Shown: positions 10,408 to 30,036 of the stretch, one piece after another
Position numbering within the stretch: position 1 is the first letter of the stretch
Layout of the letters: each line of letters starts with the position of its first letter
DNA from: a virus
Lineage: Duplodnaviria; Caudoviricetes
Length of the DNA: 62,617 nucleotides
Reading direction: 5' to 3' (one strand)
IMG/VR virus record: IMGVR_UViG_3300034106_002415
Location: 1-62,617 of that record
Notes under the pieces: model-generated
The model's input: the letters and a program-made list of their open reading frames with translations, nothing else
Database searches by the model: none
What the model was told of the DNA's origin: nothing
Program-made: the position numbers and the translations under genes

Positions 10408-10431
10408 CAACCTGAGAGGAGCAAACTCTCA
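10408..10431 (-). ncRNA. Candidate anti-RBS hairpin (3' UTR-derived sRNA or decoy)
   Basis: Minus strand reads UGAGAG-UUUGCUC-CUCUCA-GGUUG, complementary to the shared AGGAGCAAAC RBS of minus-arm genes. Confidence 0.5.
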
Positions 10432-10443
10432 CGCGCCATATAG

Positions 10444-14727: not shown

Positions 14728-15129
14728 TTACTTTCCAGTTGGCTTACGTACGCGGACTACATATTTGGTATCGGCGTTCAGGCCGATGGGCAGGTCTTCT
14801 GGGTTATCCTCAAGGAACTGGCGCATGTTGCCGTTGTGGATGCGCTGCTCAAGCAGGAAGGGCGCATCTCGGTCCTTGATGAATTGATACATCGACTCCC
14901 AGTCACTCGTCCAGAACCGAGTGGTTGTCGAGCGGGTAACCGTACCGGCAGCGGTGCGGATGCTGTCTAGGTTCTGGTCGTTGCACAGCGTCAGCAGTGC
15001 TTCGGAGACGACGTCCTGCTGGGCCTTGAGCGCAGCTATCTCCTCCTTGTGTGCTTCTTCCTTCTCGTTAATCGCATCCCGTATCCGCCGGTATGTGAGC
15101 ACGAGCTCGTCGGCTTTGGCATCTTGCAT
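14728..15129 (-). CDS. Conserved phage replication-region protein
   Basis: 133 aa, coiled-coil N-terminus, RTAAGT and LLEQRI motifs, RBS AGGAGCAAAC. Confidence 0.7.
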   Translation of the reverse strand: MQDAKADELVLTYRRIRDAINEKEEAHKEEIAALKAQQDVVSEALLTLCNDQNLDSIRTAAGTVTRSTTTRFWTSDWESMYQFIKDRDAPFLLEQRIHNGNMRQFLEDNPEDLPIGLNADTKYVVRVRKPTGK

Positions 15130-15156
15130 GGTTTGCTCCTTCTTGGTTGTCTCCCT

Positions 15157-15184
15157 AAGATATTCTTACACTACACAATGTCAA
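15157..15184 (-). promoter_or_regulatory. Sigma70-like promoter
   Basis: TTGACA-N16-TATCTT upstream of 15129. Confidence 0.55.
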
Positions 15185-16743
15185 GCACTTTGTAAAATTT
15201 CTTGTCGGTACAGGTCAATAATTTGTCGGTGGTTGGCGATGTTACCCTTAAGCATCTGATAAAGCTTAACTTCCACGTCGCTACCGCTGATGTGCACGAT
15301 GGTCATCGGGTGCTTCTGCCCTGGTCGATCGATGCGCGCGTTGGCCTGTAGGTAGGTCTCGACAGAGGTCGTCGGGGCGTACCAGATTATGGTGTCAGCT
15401 TCGGTCAGCGTGAGCCCGTGCGAGGCCGCCTTCGGCTGGATGAGGAGTACACGGGGATGCTCGCTGGACTGGAACCGCGCGACGATATCGCTGCGTTTGT
15501 TGAGGGGCACCTTGCCGTTGATGACATCGCAGCTGATCTTCTCTTTCTCTAAGGTGCTGCGCAACAGCTCGATGGTGTGGGTGAACGGCACAAACACCAG
15601 CACCTTGCGGGTGGTCTCCTCGATGGCCTCCAGCACGACGTTGATTCGGTTGCTGACATCAAAGTGCACGACTTCGCCAGTATCCGAGTAGACGGCACCC
15701 CCACTGATCTGGAGCAGCTTGTTGAGGCGGGCGGCTGCGTTGACGGCGCTAACCTCTTCCCCGTCAGCCTCCATGATCATCTGGGTCTTGAGGAGCTTGT
15801 AGTACTTCTTCTGCTGCGCGGTAAGCGGTGCCTCGCGTTCGGTGTGCGTCACCTGTGGCAGGTCCAAGCACTGGCTCTTCTCGAACCGTATGGCGGGTTG
15901 CAGTATGCGGTGCACGACCGACTTTGCCTGCGGTTTGACCCCCCACTTGAACTGCGTGATCTTGTACATGACCGAGTCGCGGAAAGACCCGTAGTGTGGG
16001 GGGCAACCTTCAGGGTTCACAAGCTTGGCAAGACCGTAGGCATCGAGCGGAGACTGCGCCGCCGGCGTACCAGTGAGCATCCACAGGCGCGGATCAGTTG
16101 TCTTGATGAGCCGGTTGAGCACCTTCCACCGCGTGGTCTGCGCGTTCTTGTATGCGGTTGCCTCGTCAACGACGATGAGATCGAAGCCCCCTGCGGCAAT
16201 CGTTTCCTCCACGACTGCCACACCGTCGAAGTTGATGATGACGAAGTCAGAGCCGGCCTCAATGATCTTCTTGCGCTGCTTCGCATCCCCGTGCGCCACA
16301 GAGCAGCTGCGGTGCATAGCAAACTTAAACAGGTCCCCCTGCCATGCGGCCTTCATGATCGAGAGCGGGCACAGCACCAGCACCCGCTTCACGAGCCCCT
16401 TCTTCATCAGGTAGTCAGCCGACCAGATGACACTCGCCGTCTTGCCGGTGCCCGCCTCGCTGAAGCAGAACGCTTTGCGGTGAAGGCTGAGAAACGATGC
16501 CGTGGTCTTCTGGTGCGCGAAGGGTGTGAGCCTGCCGGTCCACTCGTAGTCCCGCAGGATGGGCGATGGGACATCTTCCACACCCAAGGCAGTCAGCTTT
16601 TGTGCTTCCTTGATACCCCAGTGCACGGCGACTTTGCTCAGGTCCTTGCGGCGCTCCATCAGGGCGCTCTTCTTTATCGACCCGATAATTGCCGCAGGCT
16701 CCCGTGTCTCCACGAGGAGAACCTTGTTATCGATGATCCGCAT
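15181..16743 (-). CDS. SNF2-family DEAD-like helicase
   Basis: AGTGKT, IVVDEA, LTGTP and QANARIDRPGQ motifs. Confidence 0.9.
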   Translation of the reverse strand: MRIIDNKVLLVETREPAAIIGSIKKSALMERRKDLSKVAVHWGIKEAQKLTALGVEDVPSPILRDYEWTGRLTPFAHQKTTASFLSLHRKAFCFSEAGTGKTASVIWSADYLMKKGLVKRVLVLCPLSIMKAAWQGDLFKFAMHRSCSVAHGDAKQRKKIIEAGSDFVIINFDGVAVVEETIAAGGFDLIVVDEATAYKNAQTTRWKVLNRLIKTTDPRLWMLTGTPAAQSPLDAYGLAKLVNPEGCPPHYGSFRDSVMYKITQFKWGVKPQAKSVVHRILQPAIRFEKSQCLDLPQVTHTEREAPLTAQQKKYYKLLKTQMIMEADGEEVSAVNAAARLNKLLQISGGAVYSDTGEVVHFDVSNRINVVLEAIEETTRKVLVFVPFTHTIELLRSTLEKEKISCDVINGKVPLNKRSDIVARFQSSEHPRVLLIQPKAASHGLTLTEADTIIWYAPTTSVETYLQANARIDRPGQKHPMTIVHISGSDVEVKLYQMLKGNIANHRQIIDLYRQEILQSA

Positions 16744-16762
16744 GTTTGCTCCTCAGTGCGGG

Positions 16763-17059
16763 TTATTTCTTTTTTCGTTCCCGCTTACTTACTTCTGAAA
16801 CCAGGTTGTGCTTGCTGTCTCGCTTGAAGGAGCGGTTCTTGGAGGCGCTTTCGACGCGCAGACCGTCCCCGTTGGAGCCACCCTTGTCGAAGGCTTTGAC
16901 GTGGGCAACGTCCTTGTTGTCACCCTTCTTTACCTTGCCTGCCTTGAGAGCCGCGCGCCGTGCAGCGTTGCGGGCCACACGGTTCTTAACTTGCTCGGGC
17001 TGCGCTTGGTATTTGGCAGAGGTTCCGTACTTGCGGTCTTCAGGATTCTTGTAAGGCAT
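16763..17059 (-). CDS. Small HNH-type nuclease
   Basis: ATG 17059 (TGATG overlap); DVAHVKAFDKGGSN...NRS motif. Confidence 0.7.
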   Translation of the reverse strand: MPYKNPEDRKYGTSAKYQAQPEQVKNRVARNAARRAALKAGKVKKGDNKDVAHVKAFDKGGSNGDGLRVESASKNRSFKRDSKHNLVSEVSKRERKKK

Positions 17060-17721
17060 CACTTCCTCCGTGGCCGCCAGTGCTCGCAAGTTTCGACCGG
17101 ACACCACCCACACAGCGGGCTGGATTTGGCGTTCCATATACCATTTTCCAAAGCCCCCTCCAAGCGGTCTAGCTCGTCGTTGAACACAGACATGTAGGTG
17201 GCTAGGTGCTCTCGGTAATGGGTCTTCTTCGGAAACTCGTTGCTCACCACGAAGGCTAGGCCTGACTTGATCTTCTGCACCTCCGGCATGTGCACGAACA
17301 CAGCGCCTGCCATCAGATCGAGCTGGTGCATGTCTGCGTACTTGGCGTTCTTGCCGGTCTTGTAGTCGATCATGTGGGCGGTATCGCCGTCCACGATCAA
17401 CAAGTCCACGATCCCACGCCACCATACGGCCTTATCGAAGAAGCTACAGGGCTCCAAGTCACGGGTAACCCCAAGCCTTAACTCGCAGTGCTTTTCCCCA
17501 GGAAATTGGGCCAGTGCTTCCACAGCGGGTCGCATGACCTTGTATTTCCCAGGGATCGGCGTTCCGTGTTTGATGTAGTGTTCAGCAGCAGCGTGAGCTT
17601 CTTCACCAAAAAGAGCCTCGGCCCCTTGAGTATCCTTGACATCCTTAGCCACCTTGAGGTGGTAGTACTTCTTCGGACATTGTGAAAAAGTCTTGATGCT
17701 GCTGTACGACCACGATGGCAT
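17059..17721 (-). CDS. PD-(D/E)XK exonuclease (RecB/Cas4-like)
   Basis: SYSS...QCP, GIVD, IDYKTG, QLDL and C-terminal CGWC...C. Confidence 0.85.
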   Translation of the reverse strand: MPSWSYSSIKTFSQCPKKYYHLKVAKDVKDTQGAEALFGEEAHAAAEHYIKHGTPIPGKYKVMRPAVEALAQFPGEKHCELRLGVTRDLEPCSFFDKAVWWRGIVDLLIVDGDTAHMIDYKTGKNAKYADMHQLDLMAGAVFVHMPEVQKIKSGLAFVVSNEFPKKTHYREHLATYMSVFNDELDRLEGALENGIWNAKSSPLCGWCPVETCEHWRPRRK

Positions 17722-17794
17722 TAGTTTTTAACTTTCAAAGAGCGGATTTCCGCCCAAGGATTGTACCAAGCCATAGCTTCCCCCGCAGTTTGCC

Positions 17795-18220
17795 TTACAG
17801 ACGATCAGCCACCAGCTTAGCATAACCCGCGATATCGAGGAAGTTATCCTTGTGCGTCGGGTTGCCGTACACGACACGCCCCATCTTATGGGCGATCATC
17901 TCCATGCTCTCACGCATGTCAGCGTCCATGGCTTCCCAGCTGGGGCTGCTCCGCATGAGGTACTTCACACCCTGAATGAACTGCGCCTTGCTGGCGTAGT
18001 CACCGTAGTCGTTGCCACGCTCGGTCAGGACCGTGTCTACGCTGTTGTCCTCGGGGACAAACTCGGGCGCGGCTGGCTGTCCCTTGAGCTGCATCTCCCT
18101 ATGTACAGCCCACGCATGACCATAGAGCATGCCCACCGTCTTCGCGGTTTCGGTAATGCTGTAGCCCCGCTCCAGCAGTTTGCGCGCCAAGGCGCTCTTC
18201 GTCAGTTTACGCTTAGTCAT
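17795..18220 (-). CDS. DUF6378-like protein with N-terminal HTH-like region
   Basis: ERGNDYG...HKMGR....D.FLDIAGYA pattern. Confidence 0.6.
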   Translation of the reverse strand: MTKRKLTKSALARKLLERGYSITETAKTVGMLYGHAWAVHREMQLKGQPAAPEFVPEDNSVDTVLTERGNDYGDYASKAQFIQGVKYLMRSSPSWEAMDADMRESMEMIAHKMGRVVYGNPTHKDNFLDIAGYAKLVADRL

Positions 18221-18230
18221 TGTTTGCTCC

Positions 18231-19016
18231 TTACTTCAGATTGCCACCGCTCTTCAGGATATCACCGTCGTATGTGTACGTGCCGGTGTGTGTCAGGCGG
18301 ACAAAGGGGTGGGCGTATACTTTGCCGCCGTGCTTCCGCCACAGCTCACAGAAATGGTAGTCCTCCGACAGAAGGGCCCCGCTCTCGTCGATACTGGTAG
18401 CGAAATATTCGTGGGTGAGGGGTTTAGCGTACTCACCCGTATCTGGGTCTTGGAAGGATGACACTCGGTAGGTCGGCACATGCGGTGCAAGATGCTCGAA
18501 CACACCGCGCTTGATAAGCATGAAGCCAGTGCCGCCATGGCGGACCTCGATGCACCCGCTCTCGTCGGACTCAGCGTCTGCGCCGCCAACCATGTTGAAC
18601 ACGAACGCCCCAGCGTGATGCTCTAGCTCATCCAGCTTGCCTGCGCTTGCAGCGCGCTTGACGCTATCCCAGTTCACTTCCTTCTTGGGGTAGATACCGC
18701 AAGCGATGTCTCGGTCAGTGAGCATAAGCTGCGCCACTGCGTCCCCGTCGAAGCCGATGTCAGCGTCGATGAACATCAGATAATCGTGACCGCTCCCCAG
18801 GAACACACGCGCCAGCTCGTTACGGGCGCGGGTGATAAGGCTCTCGTTGGTGATCTGGCACCACGCCACATGCACCCCCAGCTCACGCATCTTGGCGACC
18901 GTGAACAGCAGACCTTGCACATACGCACCTGTGCACATGCCACCGTACATAGGGGTAGCAATCATCAGGCTCGGGCGCTTGGCCTCGACCGGCTTCACCT
19001 TGATTTCGTCACTCAC
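18231..19016 (-). CDS. GT-A fold glycosyltransferase-like protein
   Basis: IATPMYGG, LITRARN, LMFIDAD (DxD), GTGFMLI and SEDYHFC motifs. Confidence 0.75.
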   Translation of the reverse strand: MSDEIKVKPVEAKRPSLMIATPMYGGMCTGAYVQGLLFTVAKMRELGVHVAWCQITNESLITRARNELARVFLGSGHDYLMFIDADIGFDGDAVAQLMLTDRDIACGIYPKKEVNWDSVKRAASAGKLDELEHHAGAFVFNMVGGADAESDESGCIEVRHGGTGFMLIKRGVFEHLAPHVPTYRVSSFQDPDTGEYAKPLTHEYFATSIDESGALLSEDYHFCELWRKHGGKVYAHPFVRLTHTGTYTYDGDILKSGGNLK

Positions 19017-19198
19017 TTCATCTGCTCCTTCTTGTGCTGGTATACCTGCCGCGCAGCGGCGGCGAGGGTCACGCCGAAATGTTCAGCAATCTCCTCAAAG
19101 GGCTTACCAGCTACGTACATATCCCAAGCCACCTGCCGCTTTTCAGGCGTCCACCAGCCAGCAGGCTTGCGGGGGCGACTGACAATGTTACCCGTCAC
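19013..19198 (-). CDS. Small HTH protein (GcrA N-terminal-like)
   Basis: WTPEKR...Y.AG....EIAEHFGVT pattern. Confidence 0.45.
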   Translation of the reverse strand: MTGNIVSRPRKPAGWWTPEKRQVAWDMYVAGKPFEEIAEHFGVTLAAAARQVYQHKKEQMK

Positions 19199-19860
19199 TT
19201 CTTACGCACCGCAAACTGGCGACCGATGTGAACGATGTCGAGTGATTCCGCAAAGGTGTTCACAAAGAAGTCCGTAGCTAGCTTAGGACGGTGGAGGATG
19301 TCGCGGCTCTCACCCCACAGGTAATCGTCGAATACCATCAAGCCACCCTGCTTCAGCAGCGGCCATGCCATACACGCATCGGTCAGCACGTCCTTGGCGG
19401 TATGGCTACCGTCGATGTAGATGAAGTCGTACAGGTTTTTACCATCGACCCAGTGCGCCAGCTTACCCGCCAGAAACTCGGTGGACGTAGCCTTGTACTT
19501 GTAGACGCGGTTGTTGGTCCTATCCGGCCCGTCACTTGCGAACCGTGTGTGCCCCCAGCTACCCTCGCGGCTACGGTGAAGCGCCGAATTGCAGTTGAGC
19601 GCCGCGATGATGTTGTGGTCGAACCGATCTTCGATACCCTGCACGGTCTCAGCGCTGTGCTCCTCGCTGCCTTCCCACGTATCAACGCAGTCGATCCAAT
19701 CGCCAGGGTTCATCATATTCTCAATGATCCAGACGGCGCTACGGCCCTCGAACGAACCGATCTCAAGGAACGACTTACGTTCCGGCAGCAAGCCCTTTAG
19801 CTGCTCCCACACTGGGATGTTGAAGCTGAACCAGTCTTGCGTGAATTTGTAGTCAGTCAT
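19195..19860 (-). CDS. Class I SAM-dependent methyltransferase (Methyltransf_24-like)
   Basis: LEIGSFEGRS, DFIYIDGSH and GGLMVFDDY motifs. Confidence 0.8.
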   Translation of the reverse strand: MTDYKFTQDWFSFNIPVWEQLKGLLPERKSFLEIGSFEGRSAVWIIENMMNPGDWIDCVDTWEGSEEHSAETVQGIEDRFDHNIIAALNCNSALHRSREGSWGHTRFASDGPDRTNNRVYKYKATSTEFLAGKLAHWVDGKNLYDFIYIDGSHTAKDVLTDACMAWPLLKQGGLMVFDDYLWGESRDILHRPKLATDFFVNTFAESLDIVHIGRQFAVRKK

Positions 19861-19864
19861 ATTC

Positions 19865-20236
19865 TTAACTCCCGTGTGGGGCATCTGCTGCCCAAAGGAT
19901 TTCGCTTACACGCACCTCAAGGCCGCGATCATTACCGCCGATCTGGTGGGTGTGGTTGAATGATGTTTTGTAGGCCTGCGAACCGGAATGTATATCTTGG
20001 AAATGCAGAACAGCCCACTCATGGTTGTGCCCAAACGCGGTCGCATACTCGAAGTATATAACCGTACCGTTTTTGAGGCCTAAAGCATAGTCGTAAGGGT
20101 CGTAAGTACTCTTTATCAGGGCAGGGGGCCAACCTGCGGCGGTAAGTTCGCGAGTGTTGTTTTGATACTCGGTATCGTGTAGCTTACTATTCAGCTCAAA
20201 AATCTGCTTCTTGAGCTTATCAATTTCATCGTCCAT
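19865..20236 (-). CDS. Hypothetical protein (visibly more AT-rich)
   Basis: ATG 20236 preceded by AGGAGCAAAC. Confidence 0.65.
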   Translation of the reverse strand: MDDEIDKLKKQIFELNSKLHDTEYQNNTRELTAAGWPPALIKSTYDPYDYALGLKNGTVIYFEYATAFGHNHEWAVLHFQDIHSGSQAYKTSFNHTHQIGGNDRGLEVRVSEILWAADAPHGS

Positions 20237-20252
20237 TGGTTTGCTCCTTTCA

Positions 20253-22073
20253 TCAGCCCCCGTAGGAGGGGCCCATCTTGCTCTCACAGTTCAACGGCAA
20301 CGCCGTTGCCCACTTTGGGCGGATACGCATACACTGCTCAACGAACGCACGGGCTTCATCGCGTGAGCTAGCGGGCGCTAGCGCACCCACAGCGTCATGC
20401 ACGGTCATCACCACACGGTAGCGCCGCGCGACCATCAGCATCTGCTCACCGATCACGATGCGGGCCAGGGCCTGACAGATATTCTCGACGGCCTTCCCAC
20501 CATAGATGCGGTTAGGGATGACGGCCTTACCCTTCTTCTGATCGTAGACCATCTCGGTCTTGCCCTCTGGGGTTCGCACCGTGCGTAGGTTGGGATACTT
20601 GATGGAGAGGCCGTTCGGCAGCTTGATACCGTCCGCACCGCACACCGTCAGCACACCGTCACGACCCAAGGGGGCAGTCTGGTTGCTGGCCATGGCGTCG
20701 AGTGCGCTCCCAGCTTGCCGCCACAGCTTCGGGATTTGCGCGTAAGCCTCCCGATACACCTCGATGATGCGCTTGCATTCGTCCAGTTCCATGTCCACGC
20801 CAAAGGTCTTCAACTGCGCCTTGAACTTGGCCGCCCCCATACCGTAACCGCAACCCAAGATGGTGGTCTTACCCACGAACCGCTGGCCGTCCGCCACCTC
20901 TTCGACAGGCACATTGTAAATGGATGACGCCATGATCTTATAGACATCCTCACCGGCATCGAAGGCGGCCACGAGGTCATCCTGTCCAGCAAGCCAGGCC
21001 AAGGTGCGCGCTTCGATCTGGCTGCTATCGCAGTCGATGAACGCATAGCCCTCGGGTGCCAGCATGGCTTTCTTCAGCGGTGACTTGCGTGGGAGATTCT
21101 GGAGGTTGACCTTGTCGTCGCCACCCCAGCGCCCCGTGTGTGCAGCGTAATAGCGCAGCGGAACAGGCAACGCACCACGCTCCGCAATCTTGATAAACCG
21201 CTCGGTGCGTGTCTCCTCAAGGGTGGACTTCACCCCTAGCCGCGCAGCGACAATGGCCTGCACCTGTGGGTTCTCATGCTCCAGCAATTCCTTGAACGCC
21301 TCGTCGTTCTTGGCAAACGCAAAGGTCTCCTTGCCTGTGGTTGGGCTGATCTTCATGGGCGGCACAACACCGTGGAACGTCAGCAGCTCGGCCAGCTTGG
21401 GGTTGCTCATCAGGTCGGCCTTCTCGTAGTTGAGCTTGGCCATGAGAGCTTCCTTCTGGGCTTGGACATTAGCCAAGTGGTCGGTCAACACCTGCTTATC
21501 CAGGACGAGGGCCGGCTCAGAGAACATTCGGATGGTCAGGTCGATCAGACGAAACTCCACTGACGGGAAGCCCTCACCAATGCGCTTGAACAGCTTGTAC
21601 GTCAGCTCCACGTCGTTGATGCAGTAGTCGCCGTAGGCCGCCAGTTCTTCCGCCGTGAAGTCCAGTCGCCCCTTGCCCAGCGCGTTGACAACCTCGGTGC
21701 CCTTGACGCCCAGCCCATACCGCTCGACGGCTCGTGCCAGGCTATTGCCAGCATCCGGCCCATCCAGTGCCCGCAGCATGGACAGGGTATCCACAATGCG
21801 CTTGGGTCGGATGTCGAACCGCCAGTTCATGATGGCCATATCGAACATCGCGTTGTGCGCGATGGCGATGCTGTTGGCCCAGTCGAACCTATCCAGCCAA
21901 GCCTTGGTCTGCTTGACTGTGCCGGAGAACCACTGCGCCGGCTCGTCGTCCACCTTTACGGATACGCCGATAGCCTCAAAGCGCGAGTCACGGACATACT
22001 CCTCCGTTGTGATCTTCGACAGGCTGAACTGCTGGCTGTAGTAGGTCTCGAAGTCTACGGTCAGGATGGTCAT
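20253..22073 (-). CDS. polA: DNA polymerase family A with 3'-5' exonuclease domain
   Basis: ExoI DFETY, ExoII HNAMFD, ExoIII YCINDV; TGRW, motif A DSSQIEAR, motif B KTTILGCGYG, motif C VHD; start reassigned to ATG 22073 with AAGGAG. Confidence 0.93.
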   Translation of the reverse strand: MTILTVDFETYYSQQFSLSKITTEEYVRDSRFEAIGVSVKVDDEPAQWFSGTVKQTKAWLDRFDWANSIAIAHNAMFDMAIMNWRFDIRPKRIVDTLSMLRALDGPDAGNSLARAVERYGLGVKGTEVVNALGKGRLDFTAEELAAYGDYCINDVELTYKLFKRIGEGFPSVEFRLIDLTIRMFSEPALVLDKQVLTDHLANVQAQKEALMAKLNYEKADLMSNPKLAELLTFHGVVPPMKISPTTGKETFAFAKNDEAFKELLEHENPQVQAIVAARLGVKSTLEETRTERFIKIAERGALPVPLRYYAAHTGRWGGDDKVNLQNLPRKSPLKKAMLAPEGYAFIDCDSSQIEARTLAWLAGQDDLVAAFDAGEDVYKIMASSIYNVPVEEVADGQRFVGKTTILGCGYGMGAAKFKAQLKTFGVDMELDECKRIIEVYREAYAQIPKLWRQAGSALDAMASNQTAPLGRDGVLTVCGADGIKLPNGLSIKYPNLRTVRTPEGKTEMVYDQKKGKAVIPNRIYGGKAVENICQALARIVIGEQMLMVARRYRVVMTVHDAVGALAPASSRDEARAFVEQCMRIRPKWATALPLNCESKMGPSYGG

Positions 22074-22267
22074 TTTGCTACTCCTTGTGGTCGCACCCAG
22101 CGCCTGCCGCGCTTTTCGTGTAGGACTAAGCTGACCGGCCCGTCCTGCCCGTAGACCCATGCGTAGTGCTGGCCCAATATCAGCGCTCCATCCACCGTAT
22201 CGGCGTACGCCTGCGCCACGACGTACCCGTCCTGCGTGACGCGCGCTCGGTATTCGGTCATACCCAT
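22070..22267 (-). CDS. Hypothetical protein
   Basis: 65-aa ORF coupled to the polA start. Confidence 0.5.
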   Translation of the reverse strand: MGMTEYRARVTQDGYVVAQAYADTVDGALILGQHYAWVYGQDGPVSLVLHEKRGRRWVRPQGVAK

Positions 22268-22521
22268 TACTCCCCATCGCGGTCGATGGCCCGCTTAATC
22301 AGTATGTAGCTAGGGGCTACAATCAGTGCGACCACCGTCCAGAAAAGTATCGGGTCATGCATCGGCCTGCTCCCTCGCTACCGTTGCCTTGGCCTGCCAC
22401 AGGTGCGCCTTGGCGCGCTCGGACAGCACCACTGGTCTCATTGCCCCGTCAGGGTATCGCCAGTAGAACCTACGGTTGTGGATCACCACGTTTGCGTCTC
22501 TGCTAGAACGGCGTTCGGCTG

Positions 22522-22773
22522 TCATGCCACCCTCCAGCAGCGGGCCACGTTGTTCTCACGATCGGTTCGCACCGTGAACTTGCCACCATATTTGCGCGCG
22601 TAGGCCGTCATGGCGGCGTTGAGACGCCCCACAGCCTTGTCACCGTTACGGAGCATGACACCCACCAGGGGTATGGTGAAGCTATCCCCAACCCGAAGCT
22701 CTGCGAACGGGTACTTGCGTGGACGCCCAACAGCCACGGGCGGCATGGGGATGCGTTCTTCAATCTCAATCAT
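22522..22773 (-). CDS. Small conserved phage protein
   Basis: IP.P....KYPF..L.VGDSF...RCWRV pattern. Confidence 0.65.
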   Translation of the reverse strand: MIEIEERIPMPPVAVGRPRKYPFAELRVGDSFTIPLVGVMLRNGDKAVGRLNAAMTAYARKYGGKFTVRTDRENNVARCWRVA

Positions 22774-23399
22774 GCTGGACTTCCCTTAGTGACAGTTCCC
22801 TTATCCCCCCACTGCTCGGCCATAGCCTCGGCAATCCCTTTGAACGTGGTGCTACGAAGCTTCCACCGGTCGGCACTGGGTGGGAGGTAGTGCAGGCGCT
22901 GGCGCTGGTTGTCAGGTAGCGCATCCATCGCAGCCTTGACGTTGTTGGTCGGCACCAGAGGCGGCAGATTCTTCAGCCACAGGCACGTTGCCTTCTGCTC
23001 CATGTGGCCAAACATCCACGGCTGCACCAATTGCGTTTGCTTGACCCCACCGATCCGCTCCTTCGCATACTTGTGCATGATCGGGTTCTCAATGGCGATG
23101 CGCGGCACAGGTGCGTCAAGCAGCTCGCGGAAAAACTCAGCTGCCTCGTCCAGCTTCTCCCAGCGTGACGGGTCTTTGTGCAGCCACGCTACCCCACTGT
23201 TGGTGAGGTAGGTGCAGGGCGGGTGGGCAATCATCAAGTCCCAACCATGCCCGTGTGCAAGCACTAGGGCATCACCTTGGATGTGCCACTGGGGATCACC
23301 ATCAGTCGGCAGCAGGTCGCAAGACCAGGCGTCATGCCCACGCGCACGGAACGCATCGCGAACCGTGGCGCTATATTCGCAGGCGACCAGAACCTTCAC
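22770..23399 (-). CDS. Putative DNA cytosine-C5 methyltransferase-like protein
   Basis: VLVACEYS, SCD, catalytic-type HPPC and IENP motifs. Confidence 0.7.
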   Translation of the reverse strand: MKVLVACEYSATVRDAFRARGHDAWSCDLLPTDGDPQWHIQGDALVLAHGHGWDLMIAHPPCTYLTNSGVAWLHKDPSRWEKLDEAAEFFRELLDAPVPRIAIENPIMHKYAKERIGGVKQTQLVQPWMFGHMEQKATCLWLKNLPPLVPTNNVKAAMDALPDNQRQRLHYLPPSADRWKLRSTTFKGIAEAMAEQWGDKGTVTKGSPA

Positions 23400-23400
23400 C

Positions 23401-23628
23401 TCAAACCCCCGTAAGTTCTGGCGTAGACGTGGTGGCCACCGTGTTCAGAAAGGGAATAACCGGCTGCTCACCACGCAAGGCAGCGTAGGCTAGCTGCACC
23501 TTGGCAGTGTTGATGATCTTGCCAGCCGTGTTGTTGATCTCGGCTGCCTGCTTTAAATCCATGTCCCCATCACGCAGCTTGTCGAACACTTCGATCAGGC
23601 TGTCGCGGATGTCGGTAATGTTAGTCAT
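23401..23628 (-). CDS. Hypothetical protein
   Basis: 75 aa with AGGAGCAAAC RBS. Confidence 0.65.
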   Translation of the reverse strand: MTNITDIRDSLIEVFDKLRDGDMDLKQAAEINNTAGKIINTAKVQLAYAALRGEQPVIPFLNTVATTSTPELTGV

Positions 23629-24443
23629 TGGTTTGCTCCTTGGTTGATGAACTTTTTAATCTTGGTTATGAGTTCGAGGGCTTCATTTAGCTGTTTACTA
23701 TGCCCCCCGCCCTTCCAGCTTGGGTGTGTAGGGCCCTCCATTATACCGTGTATCTCTCGATACTTCATTATGTTGCGCGCTCTGAATGCGTTAAGACACT
23801 CAGACGAACAGCATAGGTGGGCGTCAGGATGATACTTGCGATGTGTCCGTTGGTTCAGTGACGGAGTAAAAACCGTTTTGCACTCATGGCATGAAGCATC
23901 GTCGTAGTATCCTGACGCTATCAGTTCTGCGGGCCGGTACTCTCTCCTAGTAAGTACCTGTGATTTCTGCGCGGGAGACTTCTTGTTTAGATTTTTCCAG
24001 CATGACTCACAGCAAAACCTGGTGTCGGTACCCTTTGCAAGCCACCTTGAACGCTTTTGGCTCGTTAACGGCACATCTGCACCGCAGAGTATGCAAGGTA
24101 CGCTTTGCGGTACACTTGCTCGGCGTTCCTGTTCTTGCCTCCACTTGATACGGCGTTCCTCTTTCGCTTCCTTGGTGTAATGGCCGTTTTTCCATTGTGA
24201 GTGTGCAGGGCCTGTCCGCTTGTTGTTATGGTTATATGCAACCAAGCGATCCCTAGCAGCCTTTTGAGCCGGTGACCCCCATGGAGGCATCTTACCCGAC
24301 TCCCACCGTGCCCGAGAATGTTGACCACGCGACAGGTGAAGGCACGGCTTTGAGCAGTAGACTGTTCTGGCCGCCCGAATGTTTTCACGCTGCTTTACAC
24401 TAGGCGCAAACTCTGCGCTGCACACGCCGCACGTAGCCATCAC
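23625..24443 (-). CDS. Multi zinc-ribbon DNA-binding protein, homing-endonuclease-related
   Basis: Three CxxC...(Y/F/L)C.S..C units plus HSQWKNG and HPSWKGG motifs; more AT-rich than neighbours. Confidence 0.55.
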   Translation of the reverse strand: MMATCGVCSAEFAPSVKQRENIRAARTVYCSKPCLHLSRGQHSRARWESGKMPPWGSPAQKAARDRLVAYNHNNKRTGPAHSQWKNGHYTKEAKEERRIKWRQEQERRASVPQSVPCILCGADVPLTSQKRSRWLAKGTDTRFCCESCWKNLNKKSPAQKSQVLTRREYRPAELIASGYYDDASCHECKTVFTPSLNQRTHRKYHPDAHLCCSSECLNAFRARNIMKYREIHGIMEGPTHPSWKGGGHSKQLNEALELITKIKKFINQGANQ

Positions 24444-24742
24444 ACGCCCCCCTTCATGTCACGAACTAGGGGGCGCACCATCTCCCAGTTCTCCTCGTTA
24501 GCCACCACAGCCACACCGCCAGCGAGGCGGATGCTCTCGATCTCACGGGTTTGCAGCGCGGTCGGCCTGTTAGCGCCTGCCTTGCACTCAATGGCGAGGA
24601 AGCGACCGTTCACACAGGCGATGATATCCGGCACCCCACTGCGACCGTAGCCGTGCGTGGCAGGGAAAAAGTAGTACGCGCCCTCGCTCTTGAGGACGGA
24701 CTCCACCTTAGTTTTTATGCGCTTTTCTGGTGTTTGCGCCAT
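24440..24742 (-). CDS. VRR-NUC domain nuclease (Holliday junction resolvase-like)
   Basis: PE, GVPDII, IECKA and TALQ motifs. Confidence 0.85.
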   Translation of the reverse strand: MAQTPEKRIKTKVESVLKSEGAYYFFPATHGYGRSGVPDIIACVNGRFLAIECKAGANRPTALQTREIESIRLAGGVAVVANEENWEMVRPLVRDMKGGV

Positions 24743-24766
24743 GAGTTTGCTCCTCTTGGTTGGGTG

Positions 24767-24794
24767 TTCCTACCCTTTTTATATTGGTTGTCAA
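24767..24794 (-). promoter_or_regulatory. Sigma70-like promoter
   Basis: TTGACA-N16-TAGGAA with an AT-rich spacer upstream of 24742. Confidence 0.45.
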
Positions 24795-24964
24795 GCGATA
24801 CCCGTGCGCTCCCTCGCATAGGCAATCAGCACCTCGCGCATCTCGGCACTCGGATTGCGGAACCGTTTGTAGAAGTCGAGGATATCCTGGGGGAGGCGCA
24901 TGGTGACGTGCGTCATGCGTGGAGGGGTGAGCGGTGCGAGATGTGCGAGATGTGCCTTGTTCAT
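24791..24964 (-). CDS. 57-aa ribbon-helix-helix (BrnA-like) DNA-binding protein, missing from the ORF track
   Basis: Manual translation MNKAHL...HVTMRLPQDILDFYKRFRNPSAEMREVLIAYARE; ATGA coupling to the upstream gene. Confidence 0.6.
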   Translation of the reverse strand: MNKAHLAHLAPLTPPRMTHVTMRLPQDILDFYKRFRNPSAEMREVLIAYARERTGIA

Positions 24965-25158
24965 TGTGTGTCCTTCATCAGTAGGTGACGGTCGAGGCGG
25001 TCAAGCACCTCGGTAACGTCAGAGAGCAGACGCGCTGCTTGGTTGGATTCGGGTACGCCATCGACGATGTTCCAGTCGGCGTGATTGTCGAGGTAATCGT
25101 AGACACCGCACAGTGCGCTGTGGATGTCGATCAGAAATGTGCGGTGGATGTCGGGCAT
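24961..25158 (-). CDS. Hypothetical early protein
   Basis: ATG 25158 with GGAGCAG RBS. Confidence 0.55.
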   Translation of the reverse strand: MPDIHRTFLIDIHSALCGVYDYLDNHADWNIVDGVPESNQAARLLSDVTEVLDRLDRHLLMKDTQ

Positions 25159-25347
25159 CTCATCTGCTCCCTCAGTGTATCGGCGGCAGCGGTGAGCGGA
25201 TACCAGGAATGTCAATCCCTGCGCCGTCCAATGCCCGTATCAGTGACGTTATGAGGTGAGCATGGTTCATCGTGATATCGATGATGTCTTGCATCGCCTC
25301 GGTCAGGGATTCGATGGTTTCCTCTTGCGCGTTGTCGTCGTGCATCT

Positions 25348-25620
25348 TCAGTCCTCCCGTGTGTCATAGCGGTAATCACCATAGGCAGCTTCAGCGTCCA
25401 TGATGTCCTCACTGACCCGTTCGTGGGCGTACTTGATGATGGCTATGTCCTCGGCGTCTGTGGTCTCGATGCTGTAGCCGTTGTGCCGCACGTCCTCGAT
25501 TCGCAAGTCATCGCCATCAGTCTCATAGATCACCTCGACCTCCCAGACCTCGTCCCCCCGCTCCAGCTCGTAATCGAAGTGGAGGGTGTATCGCCCGCTA
25601 TATGCACCGTAGCCGTTCAT
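25348..25620 (-). CDS. Hypothetical acidic early protein
   Basis: RBS AGGAGCAAGC. Confidence 0.65.
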   Translation of the reverse strand: MNGYGAYSGRYTLHFDYELERGDEVWEVEVIYETDGDDLRIEDVRHNGYSIETTDAEDIAIIKYAHERVSEDIMDAEAAYGDYRYDTRED

Positions 25621-25631
25621 GTGCTTGCTCC

Positions 25632-25835
25632 TCAGTTGCTATCCCAGTGGTGGTAGCCCGCGCCGTTGTCGCCACGGCCCCTGTCGTAGGCGTCCTCGCG
25701 TTCCTCGTCGGCCCGCTCCACCAGCACCATCGCAAGCTCCTGCCAGTTGGTGTCGGTGTTGGTGCCATACTTCACCCAACGCTTCAGGCCTTCCCAAGGC
25801 AGGGTGCGGAAGTAATCACGATCCTTCTTAGTCAT
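25632..25835 (-). CDS. Hypothetical early protein
   Basis: RBS AGGAGCAAAC. Confidence 0.65.
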   Translation of the reverse strand: MTKKDRDYFRTLPWEGLKRWVKYGTNTDTNWQELAMVLVERADEEREDAYDRGRGDNGAGYHHWDSN

Positions 25836-26031
25836 TGGTTTGCTCCTTCTTCGTTAGGCCCAGCGCATACAGGCGCTGGCGCAGGTGGTTGGGGGCAAAG
25901 CCCCACAGGCCAAGCACGTTTCGACCATACAGAGCGCACTCCTTGTTAAGCTCTGCCTCAAGGGCGCGTAGCTGTGCCTTGGCCTCGTCGTACTGGTGCA
26001 GCAGCGTGAACACTTTGAGTTCGTCGGTCAT
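25828..26031 (-). CDS. Hypothetical early protein
   Basis: ATG 26031 (MTDELKVF) with AGGAGCAAAC. Confidence 0.65.
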   Translation of the reverse strand: MTDELKVFTLLHQYDEAKAQLRALEAELNKECALYGRNVLGLWGFAPNHLRQRLYALGLTKKEQTND

Positions 26032-26041
26032 GGTTTGCTCC

Positions 26042-26407
26042 TCAGTAGATTTCGATCTCGCGGCGGATACCCAGGCGATACTCACGGTACATCGAACCGC
26101 CGCCCTCTGTGTCGTCGTTGTCCTCGCCGATCCGCACCATCTCCCAGTGCGCCCTGTGGGTTGCGTGTTCCTCGGTGTTGAACGCTTCCTCGAACTCCCG
26201 CACCGCAGCCCATGCTGATTGGACATATTCGTAATCGTCGTACCACTTCACATCGTCGTACTTCACGGTCACTAGTGGGTGGTCGTCGTATTCGAAGATG
26301 CTGCACCAGGCTTTCGGCCAGTGCTTATCAATCCATGCCGCAATCTCGCTGGTCTCTGTTTCGCCCGCTGGGTAGAAGGCGAACATCACATCACTACGGT
26401 AGCCCAT
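26042..26407 (-). CDS. Hypothetical early protein
   Basis: MGYRSDV...KWY....RIGED pattern; GAGGAG RBS. Confidence 0.65.
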   Translation of the reverse strand: MGYRSDVMFAFYPAGETETSEIAAWIDKHWPKAWCSIFEYDDHPLVTVKYDDVKWYDDYEYVQSAWAAVREFEEAFNTEEHATHRAHWEMVRIGEDNDDTEGGGSMYREYRLGIRREIEIY

Positions 26408-26494
26408 CTTGCTTCTCCTCAAGCCATCATCAGGATGAAAACACAGGCGACCAGTGCGGCCACCACGAAAACGGATTGCACGGGGGTCTCCATG

Positions 26495-26728
26495 TTACTG
26501 CTCCCCCCGCGCACGGATGGCAGACTGGAAGTCCTCCTCGTTCTCCACCACGTTCCAGCGGGCGATGAACGCTAGCAGCCACTGCCAATGCTCCCCCACC
26601 ACCAGAAGTAGTTCGTCGGCTGACATGAGGGGCAGGTTGTTCGTGTCGCAGTACTCAGTCAGCAGGTCAGTCAGTGCCTCGGTGCTGTTGCTACGCACGA
26701 TGTCGTCGAAGTCTGTCATCTGTGTCAT
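26495..26728 (-). CDS. Hypothetical early protein
   Basis: RBS AGGAGCAAGC. Confidence 0.6.
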   Translation of the reverse strand: MTQMTDFDDIVRSNSTEALTDLLTEYCDTNNLPLMSADELLLVVGEHWQWLLAFIARWNVVENEEDFQSAIRARGEQ

Positions 26729-26739
26729 GTGCTTGCTCC

Positions 26740-27246
26740 TCAGTTGGCGAAGTAGATTGCCTTGGCCTCTTCAACCGGCAGGTCAGACAGGTAGGTATAG
26801 GTGGGATACTTGGCCTTCATCACATCCAGCACCATCCAGTGCGTCTGTGGTTTCTGTACAGCCAGCTCCCAGACGCCAGCCACGTCAGGCTTGGTGAACA
26901 GCACCTTGGCCTTCATGGCGCGGGCGAAATCCTTGTCGCGCAGCCACTGGTTGACCAGATCACCGCAGACCATTTCCAGGTTTTGCTCAAGGGTCATGCC
27001 GTAGGCTTCATACGGTTTGTAGGTCTCGCCGATTAAGGTGTTGAGGGTCTCAATGTCGGCATAGCCGCGCCCGCCCTCGCCGTGGAACTCATCCGGCCCG
27101 CCGTGGCCACGGTTGGACACAGTCCCCCAGCGTTCACCGTCCACATACAGGACAGCCGTGTAGCAGTGGGTCTCCTCGCTGAAGTGTGCAACGCGCTTGA
27201 TGTTGGACAGCGCGATGTGCGGTGCCTTGGTCAGTGTGATCGTCAT
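26740..27246 (-). CDS. Hypothetical early protein
   Basis: SEET.CY.A.LYVDG...N.GHGG motif; RBS AGGAGCAAGC. Confidence 0.7.
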   Translation of the reverse strand: MTITLTKAPHIALSNIKRVAHFSEETHCYTAVLYVDGERWGTVSNRGHGGPDEFHGEGGRGYADIETLNTLIGETYKPYEAYGMTLEQNLEMVCGDLVNQWLRDKDFARAMKAKVLFTKPDVAGVWELAVQKPQTHWMVLDVMKAKYPTYTYLSDLPVEEAKAIYFAN

Positions 27247-27285
27247 ATGCTTGCTCCTCGGTTGTGCGGGTTGCTCCCGCTGCTA

Positions 27286-27316
27286 ATTGTGTGACACGCT
27301 GTGTGTCACAGGTCAA
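27286..27316 (-). promoter_or_regulatory. Probable promoter with inverted-repeat operator
   Basis: TTGACC followed by TGTGACAC-N5-GTGTCACA; the -10 element is weak. Confidence 0.5.
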
Positions 27317-27330
27317 TGGGGTTTTTTACA

Positions 27331-27516
27331 TTAGGCTTCGCTTGTGTCTTCCTGCTGCGATTCGATGAAGTCCCAACCGGCCGCGCACATGCGCTGCTCG
27401 ACCTTGTCGGGGTTGACCCCATCCAGTTCCTCTGGGTCAAAGGCACACACCGCAAACCCAGCATCACGCAGCAGTTTGAGCGCATCCAGAATCTCGTTGG
27501 TGTAGGTGAACATCAC
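27331..27516 (-). CDS. Hypothetical early protein
   Basis: 61-aa ORF with AAGGAG RBS. Confidence 0.55.
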   Translation of the reverse strand: MMFTYTNEILDALKLLRDAGFAVCAFDPEELDGVNPDKVEQRMCAAGWDFIESQQEDTSEA

Positions 27517-27712
27517 TTCTCTCCTTTTATGACAGTTCCCTGCCCTCGACGCCCAGCGCCTCGGATATCCAGGCCATTGCGGTCTTCACGTCATCAACAC
27601 GGGCGGGGTTCGGCTCAGTGTCCTCCCAGTCCCAGATGGCCTCCCACAGCGTGTCCAGCCATGATGCGGGGTTGTTCGCATTGGGTTTCATCTCACTCTC
27701 CTTTCCTGGTTT

Positions 27713-27943
27713 TTAGTTGTGGGTGTCGGCCATCTTGGTGACGTAATGCACGGGGCGTTCGTACCGGCCCGCACTGTCGCGGGTGACGCTAACCCAGCGG
27801 CCGCCACTGGCAAGGCCCACTGTCTGCCCATAGTTGATGTTCACGCCCAGCGGCCACAGTTCGGTCAAGGCCTCGCTGTCCAACGCCTCGTTCAAGGTAT
27901 CGAACCAGTTCTGCCCCGTGCGGTTCAGGTCAATCACGCGCAT
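27713..27943 (-). CDS. Hypothetical early protein
   Basis: ATG 27943 with GGAGAGTGAG leader. Confidence 0.55.
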   Translation of the reverse strand: MRVIDLNRTGQNWFDTLNEALDSEALTELWPLGVNINYGQTVGLASGGRWVSVTRDSAGRYERPVHYVTKMADTHN

Positions 27944-28066
27944 CTCACTCTCCCTTTGGTTTGTCGTGGCCACGCAGCAGGGCGTGGATAAGCTTTGCCT
28001 CTTTCTTTCCGATCGGTTGGCGGCTGGCCTTGATGGCGCGGTTCACCGCTGTTTCGTTATAGTTGG

Positions 28067-28486
28067 TCATGGCTTAGGCTCCAGATCAGTGAGGAAAGCG
28101 GCTGTGAAGTGGCTGATGTTGTCATCAGTCCGGATGTTGGCGATGCCATCGCTAATCCGGTCAATGGTTCCGGTGCGGTCGTTGCTGATAATCCGCACCT
28201 TGTCGCCAAGGTTAAACGTGTTGGTCATGGCGTTAGGCTCCCCCAACAGTTCGGCCAACAGTTCATCATCGCTCAGGTTGGCCAGCACATCATCCAGCGT
28301 CATTGCGGGGTCAGTGATGCCGTAAAGCAGCCAGTTTGTGTTGGCCCTGCCACCGGCCTTGTCGGCCTCTTGCATGGTGGCGAAGCCGCCCACGGTGTGG
28401 ATGATGCCTTCATCACCCCACAGTTCATAAGCAAACTTGCCGGTGGCGTTTGCGTCCTTGCCTGTTGACCAGCCCATGATGTTCAC
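28067..28486 (-). CDS. Hypothetical early protein
   Basis: First gene after the promoter at 28505-28533. Confidence 0.55.
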   Translation of the reverse strand: MNIMGWSTGKDANATGKFAYELWGDEGIIHTVGGFATMQEADKAGGRANTNWLLYGITDPAMTLDDVLANLSDDELLAELLGEPNAMTNTFNLGDKVRIISNDRTGTIDRISDGIANIRTDDNISHFTAAFLTDLEPKP

Positions 28487-28504
28487 TCCCTCGTTGATGT
28501 TTCT

Positions 28505-28533
28505 AAGCTAACCCGTGTGCCACACGGCGTCAA
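28505..28533 (-). promoter_or_regulatory. Early sigma70-like promoter with palindromic operator in the spacer
   Basis: TTGACG-N17-TAGCTT; spacer contains the perfect palindrome CCGTGTG-N-CACACGG. Confidence 0.75.
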
Positions 28534-28539
28534 GGGTAA

Positions 28540-28930
28540 AATCGAAAACTGATCGAAAATAATTTAAGTGTCTGATTTCGCAGGGTTGTTATGGAAAGTG
28601 TAAGGTATGTAAGGAAAACGGCAAGGGGTTCTTACATTAGTTTTGCGGGGAAAACGCAACAAAACCAGTGGGGTAGTAGTATAGTAAATAGTTTTGTAAA
28701 ATAGTAGGATTGTAAAAACGGAAATACGCCAGACTTTTTTTGTCGCACCCATCGCTGTGCCACACAAGTGCGAGCCAGTTTCGCCGAAACCGAAAAAGTT
28801 GAAATCCCGCTCACACCCGTCTTACATTCCTACAGTTCTTACACCATTGAAATCATTATCTTTTTTTCTTACACAACATCTTACACAACCCCCATTTCTT
28901 TACGTTTGTTTTTCCTGTTGCCACGAAAAC
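28540..28930. other. AT-rich non-coding region with repeated CTTACA boxes, candidate replication origin
   Basis: CTTACA/TGTAAG at 28599, 28608, 28631, 28821, 28838, 28868 and 28880; no credible ORF. Confidence 0.45.
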
Positions 28931-29061
28931 CGTAGCGTGTTAGTCGTGTGTTCACGACCTCGGGAAGCCGGAACCGCCGCCCACCTATGACGGTTCCCGC
29001 CCACGCCTGGCTCCAGGCCAACGCCGTTCCTGTGGGGCTGGCAATGCCAGCCCCCCTCCCC

Positions 29062-29787
29062 TCAATGCCGCGCAATCTGAACCGACACGCGCGCCTTGCT
29101 AGCCGTTCCCATGCAAGCCCGACACGTGGCGCAATTGGTCACGGCCGCCTTTTCTTTGCTGGCAGGGCAAACGGTTTCTAGGCCTTTGACGTTTTCAAAT
29201 GGCTTGGCGGTGACGCGAAACGTCCGAAACCCGCGCTTATGTGCGGCCAGCATATCGGCCAAGCTATCGGCACTGGCCATGACAAGCCGCGCCCAATCGA
29301 TACCGGCCGCGCGCCATTGGTGCGTGTATCCCGTCCAACCTAGTGCCTTGCTAGCGGCCGCTTGCCATATGCCTATAGGCGCGGCGAAGGGGTCGCCATA
29401 GGAACCAAAGCGAACCATCCGGCCCTCGCATAGGCTGGCAATGTCGGCCATAGTGGCGCGGGGATATATGCCGCGCTGATACCCATTGTATACCGACAAG
29501 GGGGCTTGGAACGTCTTCACATAGCAGGGGACAAAGGCCTCACCGCTAGCCGTCACAGTCTCCCGCATAGCCGGCCGGTGTGGGCATTGGCCGCAAATGC
29601 TAGCGTCATCGCCAGACTTAACCGCATGGTGTGGCGCGATATCCGATCGGATAATCCATGTCTGTATCATGTCGCCAGTCTTGGCGTTTGCGCTGCTATT
29701 CGCAAAGCCCGTGGCAATCACCACGATAGGCTGGCCGTCAATGCCGCTAGGGCCTTCATACAGAATATAACCGTTTGGCTTGGACAT
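29062..29787 (-). CDS. Cys-rich conserved phage early protein
   Basis: NAKTG, CGQCP..CYV, RFGSYGDP, YTHQW, CPA..CATCRAC motifs; RBS CGGGAGTAA. Confidence 0.7.
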   Translation of the reverse strand: MSKPNGYILYEGPSGIDGQPIVVIATGFANSSANAKTGDMIQTWIIRSDIAPHHAVKSGDDASICGQCPHRPAMRETVTASGEAFVPCYVKTFQAPLSVYNGYQRGIYPRATMADIASLCEGRMVRFGSYGDPFAAPIGIWQAAASKALGWTGYTHQWRAAGIDWARLVMASADSLADMLAAHKRGFRTFRVTAKPFENVKGLETVCPASKEKAAVTNCATCRACMGTASKARVSVQIARH

Positions 29788-29811
29788 GGTAATTACTCCC
29801 GTGTGGTTTGA

Positions 29812-30015: not shown

Positions 30016-30036
30016 GATGTTACTCCCGTGATGTGA

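Follow-up and report, generated by a model that had tools for sequence, protein, structure and literature searches.

The window analysed here is a whole phage genome of 62,617 bp (IMG/VR record IMGVR_UViG_3300034106_002415; Caudoviricetes) with a G+C content of 57–58%. Eleven genes of its replication arm carry one extended ribosome-binding site (RBS), hereafter the tag, and a short element at 10367–10432 on the minus strand, a candidate anti-RBS small RNA or 3′-end element, holds the exact antisense of that tag. The genome is laid out in two arms. The plus-strand structural (late) arm runs from ~31.0 kb through the window end and on to 10,369, with TerL at 31611–33134 and a putative portal open reading frame (ORF) at 33134–35584 on the same strand, assigned without a family check. 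The minus-strand replication arm runs from ~30.3 kb down to 10.4 kb and contains, besides many small ORFs, genes for an SNF2 helicase, a PD-(D/E)XK nuclease, a DNA polymerase, two methyltransferases and a primase-helicase. No close GenBank relative was found by megablast, the top identities being 56% for TerL and 38% for the helicase. Gene counts refer to a list of 77 genes, which is not an annotation and for which ORFs were scored by codon usage and curated by hand; it comprises 27 mid-arm minus-strand genes (10.4–27.3 kb), 7 early minus-strand genes (27.3–30.3 kb) and 43 plus-strand structural genes.

An extended ribosome-binding site on the replication arm

The pattern GYTTGCTCCT occurs 12 times in the window, 11 times on the plus strand and once on the minus strand (10417–10426). 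Dinucleotide shuffles contain a mean of 0.27 matches and at most 2, and 0 of 100 reach 12. Read on the minus strand, the 11 sites spell AGGAGCAA(A/G)C ahead of the ATG of an ORF (ATG is the start in all 11), at a distance of 0 nt in one case, 1 nt in three and 2 nt in seven. An initial annotation of this DNA had proposed such a common extended RBS, 0–2 nt from the ATG, for at least 11 minus-arm genes, and all 11 sites lie exactly where it placed them. The tag stands ahead of 11 of the 27 mid-arm genes as against none of the 7 early minus-arm genes and none of the 43 plus-strand genes (0/50 others; Fisher p = 2e-6). It is thus not equally common ahead of late genes, and the four late leaders quoted earlier as lacking it are indeed present in the window without it. 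Likewise, CA directly follows GGAG in 13 of the 19 mid-arm leaders that hold GGAG, compared with none of the 7 early and none of the 16 late ones; late leaders mostly read GGAGA or GGAGT, and those of the earliest minus-strand genes GGAGAG(A/T)G or GGGAGTAAT.

At the tagged junctions the spacing from AGGAG to ATG is 5–7 nt, and the leaders are U-poor and A/C-rich, three sites having AGGAGCAAAC(C)AATGACTAA in common. We take the CAA(A/G)C portion of the tag to be unable to pair with the 3′ end of 16S rRNA. CAAC lies within ~10 nt upstream of the tag at 6 of the 11 sites and CAACC at 4, in agreement with the earlier remark that CAAC(C) is often found there. The gene junctions at most tags are tight or overlapping: four tags overlap the stop codon of the upstream gene, and gaps of at least 48 nt precede only 2 of the 11 (24743–24790 and 27247–27330).

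All 11 tags are on the minus strand. The tag AGGAGCAAAC at 15131–15140 stands 1 nt before the ATG of gene 14728–15129 (133 aa; a weak DUF7307/phrog_13900 match), which follows the helicase and is retained as a target in every lineage examined. Another AGGAGCAAAC, at 16744–16753, directly adjoins (0 nt) the ATG of the SNF2-type helicase itself (15181–16743), the upstream stop codon TGA overlapping the tag. Further copies lie at 18222–18231 (1 nt before the ATG of gene 17795–18220, 141 aa, DUF6378), at 20239–20248 (2 nt; gene 19865–20236, 123 aa) and at 23631–23640 (2 nt; gene 23401–23628, 75 aa), the last with CAACC immediately upstream. The tag at 24745–24754, 2 nt before the ATG of a Hjc/VRR-NUC-like nuclease gene (24440–24742, 100 aa), combines CAACC with the longest complementarity to the element RNA (14 nt). 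Two neighbouring 67-aa genes have tags at 25838–25847 (2 nt; gene 25632–25835) and 26033–26042 (1 nt; gene 25828–26031), and the variant AGGAGCAAGC stands 2 nt before the ATG at 25623–25632 (gene 25348–25620, 90 aa), 26731–26740 (gene 26495–26728, 77 aa) and 27249–27258 (gene 26740–27246, 168 aa), the last being the first tagged gene past a promoter-like region described below. There are also two weaker tags on this strand, AGGAGCAG at 19022–19029 before the GTG of gene 18231–19016 and GGGAGCAG at 25164–25171 before the ATG of gene 24961–25158, whose duplexes with a 13-nt seed of the element reach −15.7 and −16.7 kcal/mol, respectively.

Some observations concern the neighbours of these genes. 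A 272-aa ORF at 23625–24443 (minus strand) has no family match except a faint endonuclease hit; together with the tagged gene 23401–23628 it makes up a 1,051-nt cassette, in place of which a colinear relative that is 92–96% identical (G001) has 417 nt. The long DNA-polymerase ORF has ~200 nt at its 5′ end (22074–22277) that are missing in G001 and in a contig from an RNA run, the latter connecting 22073 to 22277 through 12 different letters; this may be an indel, or the start of the polymerase may differ among relatives. On the late arm, a 1901-aa protein (4664–10369, plus strand) of unknown function matches only the C-terminal parts of PHROG profiles of ~2,800–3,400 positions (phrog_14770, phrog_616).

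The hairpin–terminator element and its co-variation with the tag

The twelfth copy of the motif, which the initial annotation did not list, reads on the plus strand at 10417–10426, is followed by CTCTCACGCGCCATATAG and is not at a gene start. It belongs to the hairpin GAGAG-UUUGCUC-CUCUC at 10414–10430 (minus strand), which has a 5-bp stem and a 7-nt loop (10419–10425). Loop and 3′ arm together, GUUUGCUCCU, form an exact antisense to AGGAGCAAAC; the plus-strand version of the hairpin reads GAGAG-GAGCAAA-CTCTC. The minus-strand RNA reads 5′-GAGAG UUUGCUC CUCUC AGGUUGUACUAA, followed by a terminator and U6. Within it, a linker of 10 nt (10404–10413) holds GGUUG (10408–10412), complementary to the CAACC of 4 of the 11 tags. 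The intrinsic terminator (10367–10403) comprises a 12-pair G+C-rich stem and then a T-run, its U-tract overlapping the stop codon of the last late gene on the opposite strand. This arrangement of 5′ hairpin, linker and terminator, ~62–66 nt in all, is predicted to fold as two hairpins with the linker single-stranded between them (minimum free energy (MFE) −30.3 kcal/mol, z = −5.4). Because the hairpin adjoins a terminator whose T-run is on the minus strand, it is the minus-strand RNA that would carry the antisense of the tag. When 9-mers common to the leaders of at least three genes were scanned for antisense copies, only this hairpin came up on the arm's transcribed strand, which establishes at the sequence level both the complementarity and its uniqueness. 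The loop starts with UUUG, which agrees with YUNR, the U-turn motif in the loops of antisense RNAs.

Upstream of the hairpin lies a promoter-like region (10437–10465, minus strand) made up of TTTACG (10465–10460), 17 nt, TATATG (10442–10437) and then ~6 nt. A small conserved ORF of 64 aa (10444–10638, minus strand), situated between the primase gene and the element, carries the −35-like box in its last codons; it has no Pfam or PHROG match, and no RNA-chaperone role can therefore be claimed for it. No Rfam family reaches its gathering score in the window, and the element is not a member of any.

Relatives were collected by a helicase-based scan of IMG/VR, which found 172, of which 80 loci spanning 100% to 57% helicase identity were kept. 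GGAGCAA is strongly biased toward the arm strand in relatives down to ~70% identity. Of the 80 loci, 31 contain the element, in 21 distinct variants and additionally in L057, a count that takes no account of how many of the other loci reach the region; in these relatives it lies downstream of the primase gene and the small conserved ORF. The hairpin occurs as GAGAG-UUUGCUC-CUCUC, GGAAG-UUUGCUC-CUUCC, GGAAG-AUGCUC-CUUCC, GGAAG-CUGCUC-CUUCC and GGAAG-UGCUC-CUUCC, with an invariant loop core UGCUCCU and a stem that changes from GAGAG/CUCUC to GGAAG/CUUCC. An alignment of 17 sequences, in which all five stem pairs are kept in 17 of 17 and two are compensatory with both sides changed, establishes stem covariation as well as conservation. 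The terminators of relatives have U–G and G–U pairs on the minus strand, pointing to this as the strand of the terminator, and the covariation score of the whole structure was reached by 0 of 500 shuffles. A covariance model built from the alignment (R1) scores 81 bits in the window and recovers weaker copies in L059, L074/L076 and L078.

Outside the hairpin, a 20-variant alignment contains two invariant blocks (20/20), TGCTCCT and GGGGTTTACG. The latter belongs to the final codons of the small ORF, where synonymous positions do not vary either; 16–17 nt after it comes a TATAAT-like box (TATAAT, TAATAT or TGnTATTAA, with TATATG in the window) that precedes the hairpin by ~7 nt. We read GGGGTTTACG and this box as a putative dedicated promoter of the element.

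The element and the RBSs also vary together. Contiguous complementarity of 9 nt or more to the element is found in the leaders of 11 of 68 minus-strand and 0 of 57 plus-strand ORF starts of the window; the corresponding counts are 11/65 versus 0/60 in G001 and 8/41 versus 0/44 in G004, the complete genome of a group at 71% identity, each matched to its own element. The 11 tagged leaders of the window reach 10–14 nt of perfect complementarity. Their duplexes with the 13-nt seed range from −16.3 to −21.2 kcal/mol, the median of the other 66 leaders being −8.5 kcal/mol, and 14 of 77 leaders reach −16.3 kcal/mol compared with a mean of 1.1 (maximum 8) for 300 seeds shuffled in the flanks with CUCCU fixed. 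Duplex energies calculated with a 31-nt seed separated the gene classes poorly and were replaced by contiguous complementarity and the 13-nt seed.

In three lineages at 57–59% helicase identity, the two partners carry other sequences. L078 has the element CUCUUCUCCUUAAC and RBSs AAGGAGAAGAG(U), L073 the element CUCUUCUCCUC and the RBS GGAGAAGAG, and L077 the loop UUCAUUCUCCUGUU and the RBS AACAGGAGAAUGAA, with a 14-nt match. For five lineage representatives, no other of the 120 assignments does as well as pairing each element with the leaders of its own genome (24 matching leaders versus a mean of 7), and orthologous leaders, those of the helicase and of the gene after it (14728–15129 in the window), form self duplexes averaging −22 kcal/mol compared with −16 to −17 kcal/mol for foreign ones. 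These comparisons establish co-variation between the element and the flavour of the RBS.

Two further observations concern possible structures around the tag. The covariance model also matches the antisense strand of the 24440–24742 leader (24739–24780, plus strand; 22 bits), where a terminator-like hairpin GGGTGTTCCTACCC is followed by TTTTT at 24762–24775; this could be a second, cis-antisense copy, or it could merely reflect the long complementarity there. Separately, the helicase leader of the 71% group (~47,095–47,115 of G004, equivalent to ~9,985–10,005 of L048) can fold as CACGA-AGGAGCAG-UCGUG, so that the loop would hold the RBS and the stem the GTG start.

Upstream of the first tagged gene, the initial annotation had pointed to a leader hairpin, GCGGG-AGCAA-CCCGC at 27266–27280 (minus strand), with the motif in its loop. 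The hairpin does appear in the MFE fold of the 61-nt leader, but that leader is no more stable than its shuffles (z = −0.28). It is identical in G001 and hence without covariation information, and a scan of G004 for AGCA-loop hairpins gave matches too numerous to interpret. Its AGCAA loop is complementary to UUGCU of the element loop, making it a candidate for a possible kissing contact. Immediately upstream of the same gene is a promoter-like TTGACC-N17-CACAAT (27285–27320, minus strand) whose spacer contains a perfect palindrome, TGTGACAC-N5-GTGTCACA (27290–27310). The region is identical in G001 and looks like a repressor-controlled promoter that would open the tagged block. The earliest minus-strand genes (27331–30216) have other leaders in common, (A/G)GGAGAG(A/T)G in three and near-identical CGGGAGTAAT(T/C)ACC ATG leaders in genes 29062–29787 and 30037–30216; the leader 9-mer scan found no antisense copy of these.

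Proposed control of the tagged genes and competing explanations

We consider it probable, short of confident, that the extended RBS serves as an address, read by an anti-RBS small RNA or 3′-end element that the phage encodes and that controls the tagged regulon. Since the loop is the exact antisense of a private tag on 11 genes, one RNA probably controls the translation of the whole set. The RNA, ~64 nt long, would either come from a promoter of its own or form the 3′ end of the transcript of the arm. It would pair first through its 7-nt loop and then through the 3′ stem arm and the linker, where GGUUG would meet CAACC. The resulting duplex would cover the Shine-Dalgarno sequence and the spacer up to the start codon of the 11 genes and would compete with the 30S subunit, the most likely outcome being joint translational repression of the tagged set. 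We infer the production of this RNA and its pairing in vivo, and repression by analogy. The regulon-like small RNA target suggested in the initial annotation thus gains a conserved antisense partner at 10367–10432 that co-varies with RBS flavour; the co-variation is imperfect, and the case is a comparative one.

Several observations weigh against this interpretation. The tag is missing from 16 of the 27 mid-arm genes, including those for the primase, DNA polymerase and exonuclease, which leaves the logic of such a regulon unclear. In the 71% group, more leaders match the UUUGCUCC-type element than the group's own AUGCUCC element (9 versus 6 of 22), L076 has 1 matching leader among 19, and the element of L059 is without anti-RBS sequence, with 0 of 8 leaders matching, although one RBS there is still GAAGGAGCAAGCC. 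The antisense sequence is partly locked in a stem; the covariation of the hairpin amounts to a single lineage split (5 versus 12 sequences), and the hairpin itself has no G–U pair that would fix its strand. Upstream, a strict sigma-70 consensus scan calls no promoter in 10200–10800, and the −10 box of the window, TATATG, lacks the final T. The transcript data consist of one freshwater-sediment metatranscriptome run (X1, share 0.09), as assembled contigs that carry no information on strand, ends or level; these contigs come from ~90%-identical relatives and span the whole arm, one of them covering 10007–10688. That contig has 49 differences from the window; among the 29 listed, none lies in 10363–10430, a partial count from which we draw no conclusion.

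A protein could read the tag in place of an RNA. In phage T4, RegA and RegB act on the initiation regions of early messages and on extended GGAG sites (PMC3014915), and the tag might likewise be the operator or recognition site of a RegA-like repressor or RegB-like nuclease, the hairpin copy then acting, on late plus-strand RNA made by read-through, as a decoy or a site of high affinity. The hairpin would present the sense motif on the plus strand as well, and its pairs, all G–C or A–U, are compatible with either strand. We nevertheless regard this explanation as unlikely. The protein operator put forward in the initial annotation is without support from the 30 minus-arm proteins, none of which matches the RegA or RegB family (Pfam, E ≤ 0.01; plus-arm proteins were not scanned), and on the plus strand the hairpin comes after the terminator stem, without a T-run on that side. 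A protein site, moreover, needs no GGUUG linker mirroring the CAACC of the leaders and does not predict the exact-complement changes of the element in L077, L078 and L073. Those same changes bear on the idea that the tag is merely a strong, unstructured initiation region, kept similar by descent, gene conversion or convergent selection, and that the hairpin is a relic inverted junction with no function in trans. The ordinary spacing, the U-poor, A/C-rich leaders and the sequence common to three sites all fit such an origin, and plus-strand CAACCTGAGAGGAGCAAAC resembles the tagged junctions CAACTGAGGAGCAAGC, stop codon included; the RNA gene may indeed have arisen from an inverted tagged junction. 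Yet the late structural genes, expected to be the most translated, are never tagged (0/43), and a relic is not expected to keep its position, stem covariation and invariant loop down to ~70% helicase identity, nor to give way to another self-complementary sequence in the lineages at 57–59% identity. This, too, appears to us an improbable account.

The initial annotation had further suggested that the tag provides microhomology for swapping small genes as cassettes between related phages. As the main role of the tag we judge this very unlikely. Two ends of homology blocks against G001 do abut a tag, at 18217 of the window, where a different gene comes after the same tag and ATG, and at 20249, where G001 has ~590 extra nt; G001 also holds 16 copies of minus-strand GGAGCAA (15.4–28.1 kb of its record) versus 12 on the minus strand of the window. 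These are, however, only 2 of ~12 block ends in the tagged region, the others being at untagged junctions or inside genes. With 11 of 27 junctions tagged, this is about the expected share, and the breakpoints therefore do not specifically support cassette exchange. A cassette role also leaves the antisense hairpin unexplained; it is compatible with the antisense RNA and does not replace it.

If the antisense RNA acts as proposed, one short RNA working on many RBSs of its own phage would be a compact post-transcriptional switch, and its pairing would explain the conservation of bases outside the region that pairs with the anti-Shine-Dalgarno sequence. What is known of the timing of phage genes concerns mainly transcription, together with a few proteins such as T4 RegA and RegB. 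The tag and its RNA would also constitute a portable pair for the synthetic control of gene sets.

Comparison with known systems

In the open-access literature we found no phage small RNA that acts on a tagged set of the phage's own genes. The c4 RNA of P1/P7 (~77 nt) comes close as a phage small RNA that acts in trans on phage mRNA, its loop sequences pairing around an RBS and blocking translation (PMC12197685). It is processed from the transcript that also carries its target and controls one target region (icd/ant), whereas the element described here faces 11 tagged genes, and c4 is absent both at the gathering threshold in the window and among the 31 Rfam matches at E ≤ 10 in 10330–10480. 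RoxS and FsrA, through their C-rich regions, offer a parallel for one small RNA that uses a short pyrimidine-rich motif against the Shine-Dalgarno regions of several mRNAs (PMC8216469). The best sub-threshold Rfam match of the element, on the same strand and at 25 bits (E = 0.003), is alpha-r14/Cuckoo (RF02344), like RoxS and FsrA a bacterial small RNA with a pyrimidine-rich anti-Shine-Dalgarno seed exposed in a loop; this score is far under the gathering score of 58.8, and the element is therefore not a member of RF02344. Both RoxS/FsrA and alpha-r14 are chromosomal regulators of host metabolism, while specificity here would be conferred by the private extension on the 3′ side of GGAG. As the 3′ end of the arm transcript, should that be its form, the element could act in the way described for the icaR mRNA of Staphylococcus aureus, in which an anti-Shine-Dalgarno motif at the 3′ end pairs with the Shine-Dalgarno sequence and blocks initiation (PMC3868564); icaR, by contrast, is a bacterial gene and a single mRNA acting on itself.

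T4 provides a precedent at the level of regulatory logic, in that many early or middle messages are shut down jointly through their initiation regions. RegA represses many early mRNAs there, and RegB cuts early GGAG sites with the extended 3′ consensus GG*AGRAYARAA (PMC3014915). The T4 regulators are proteins, however, whereas the candidate here is an RNA, and neither family is represented among the 30 minus-arm proteins.

The tag itself is most like the Start-Associated Sequences (SAS) of Cluster K mycobacteriophages, for which the account of the motif in Pope et al. 2011 (PMC3203893) states that the function is unknown and proposes no antisense partner; a SAS-like motif has also been described in Cluster EF Microbacterium phages (PMC7302621). 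SAS and the tag are both asymmetric motifs of 10–13 nt around AGGAG with conserved flanks unable to pair with 16S rRNA, and both occur in 10–19 copies of a single orientation, restricted to the non-structural genome half and placed a few nt ahead of start codons that are mostly ATG. In both, a single reverse copy lies away from gene starts (PMC3203893 for SAS); here it is at 10417–10426. The SAS consensus, GGGATAGGAGCCC, has only AGGAGC in common with the tag, and the host phylum differs. SAS also favour gaps of more than 50 bp, and half are accompanied by 17-bp inverted repeats (ESAS) (PMC3203893), whereas the tags here sit in tight junctions, at which no ESAS was seen, although no dedicated search for 17-bp inverted repeats was made.

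The reverse copy is of particular relevance in this comparison. Phage Anaya has 16 forward SAS and 1 reverse SAS, the latter in the 385-nt gap between gp96 and gp97, where the transcribed strand reads GCGCGG-CCUCCUAUCC-CCGCGC, a 10-nt loop on a 6-bp GC stem. This stem-loop (L089 34853–34915, equivalent to ~59,852–59,914 of the Anaya record) lies in a non-coding, mostly unannotated gap, and 138 Cluster K records retain the region. Across eight aligned Cluster K phages it forms a long stem-loop with the reverse-SAS hairpin at the tip, in which 10 of 43 predicted pairs are compensatory and several are G–U on the transcribed strand. No usable published RNA-seq of Cluster K phages was found. In Ekdilam, 15 SAS copies are unchanged and the loop (UCCUCCUUCCCC) is only an imperfect complement, and the co-variation test in Cluster K therefore failed there. 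We suggest tentatively, as a possibility rather than an expectation, that phages of unrelated groups mark blocks of their own genes by a private RBS extension and address them by one antisense hairpin RNA, the SAS of Cluster K among them, whose lone reverse copy would then be the loop of a conserved structured RNA in the right-end non-coding gap. The SAS motifs, to which no function was assigned in 2011, would thereby gain a hypothesis that can be tested in M. smegmatis, a tractable host.

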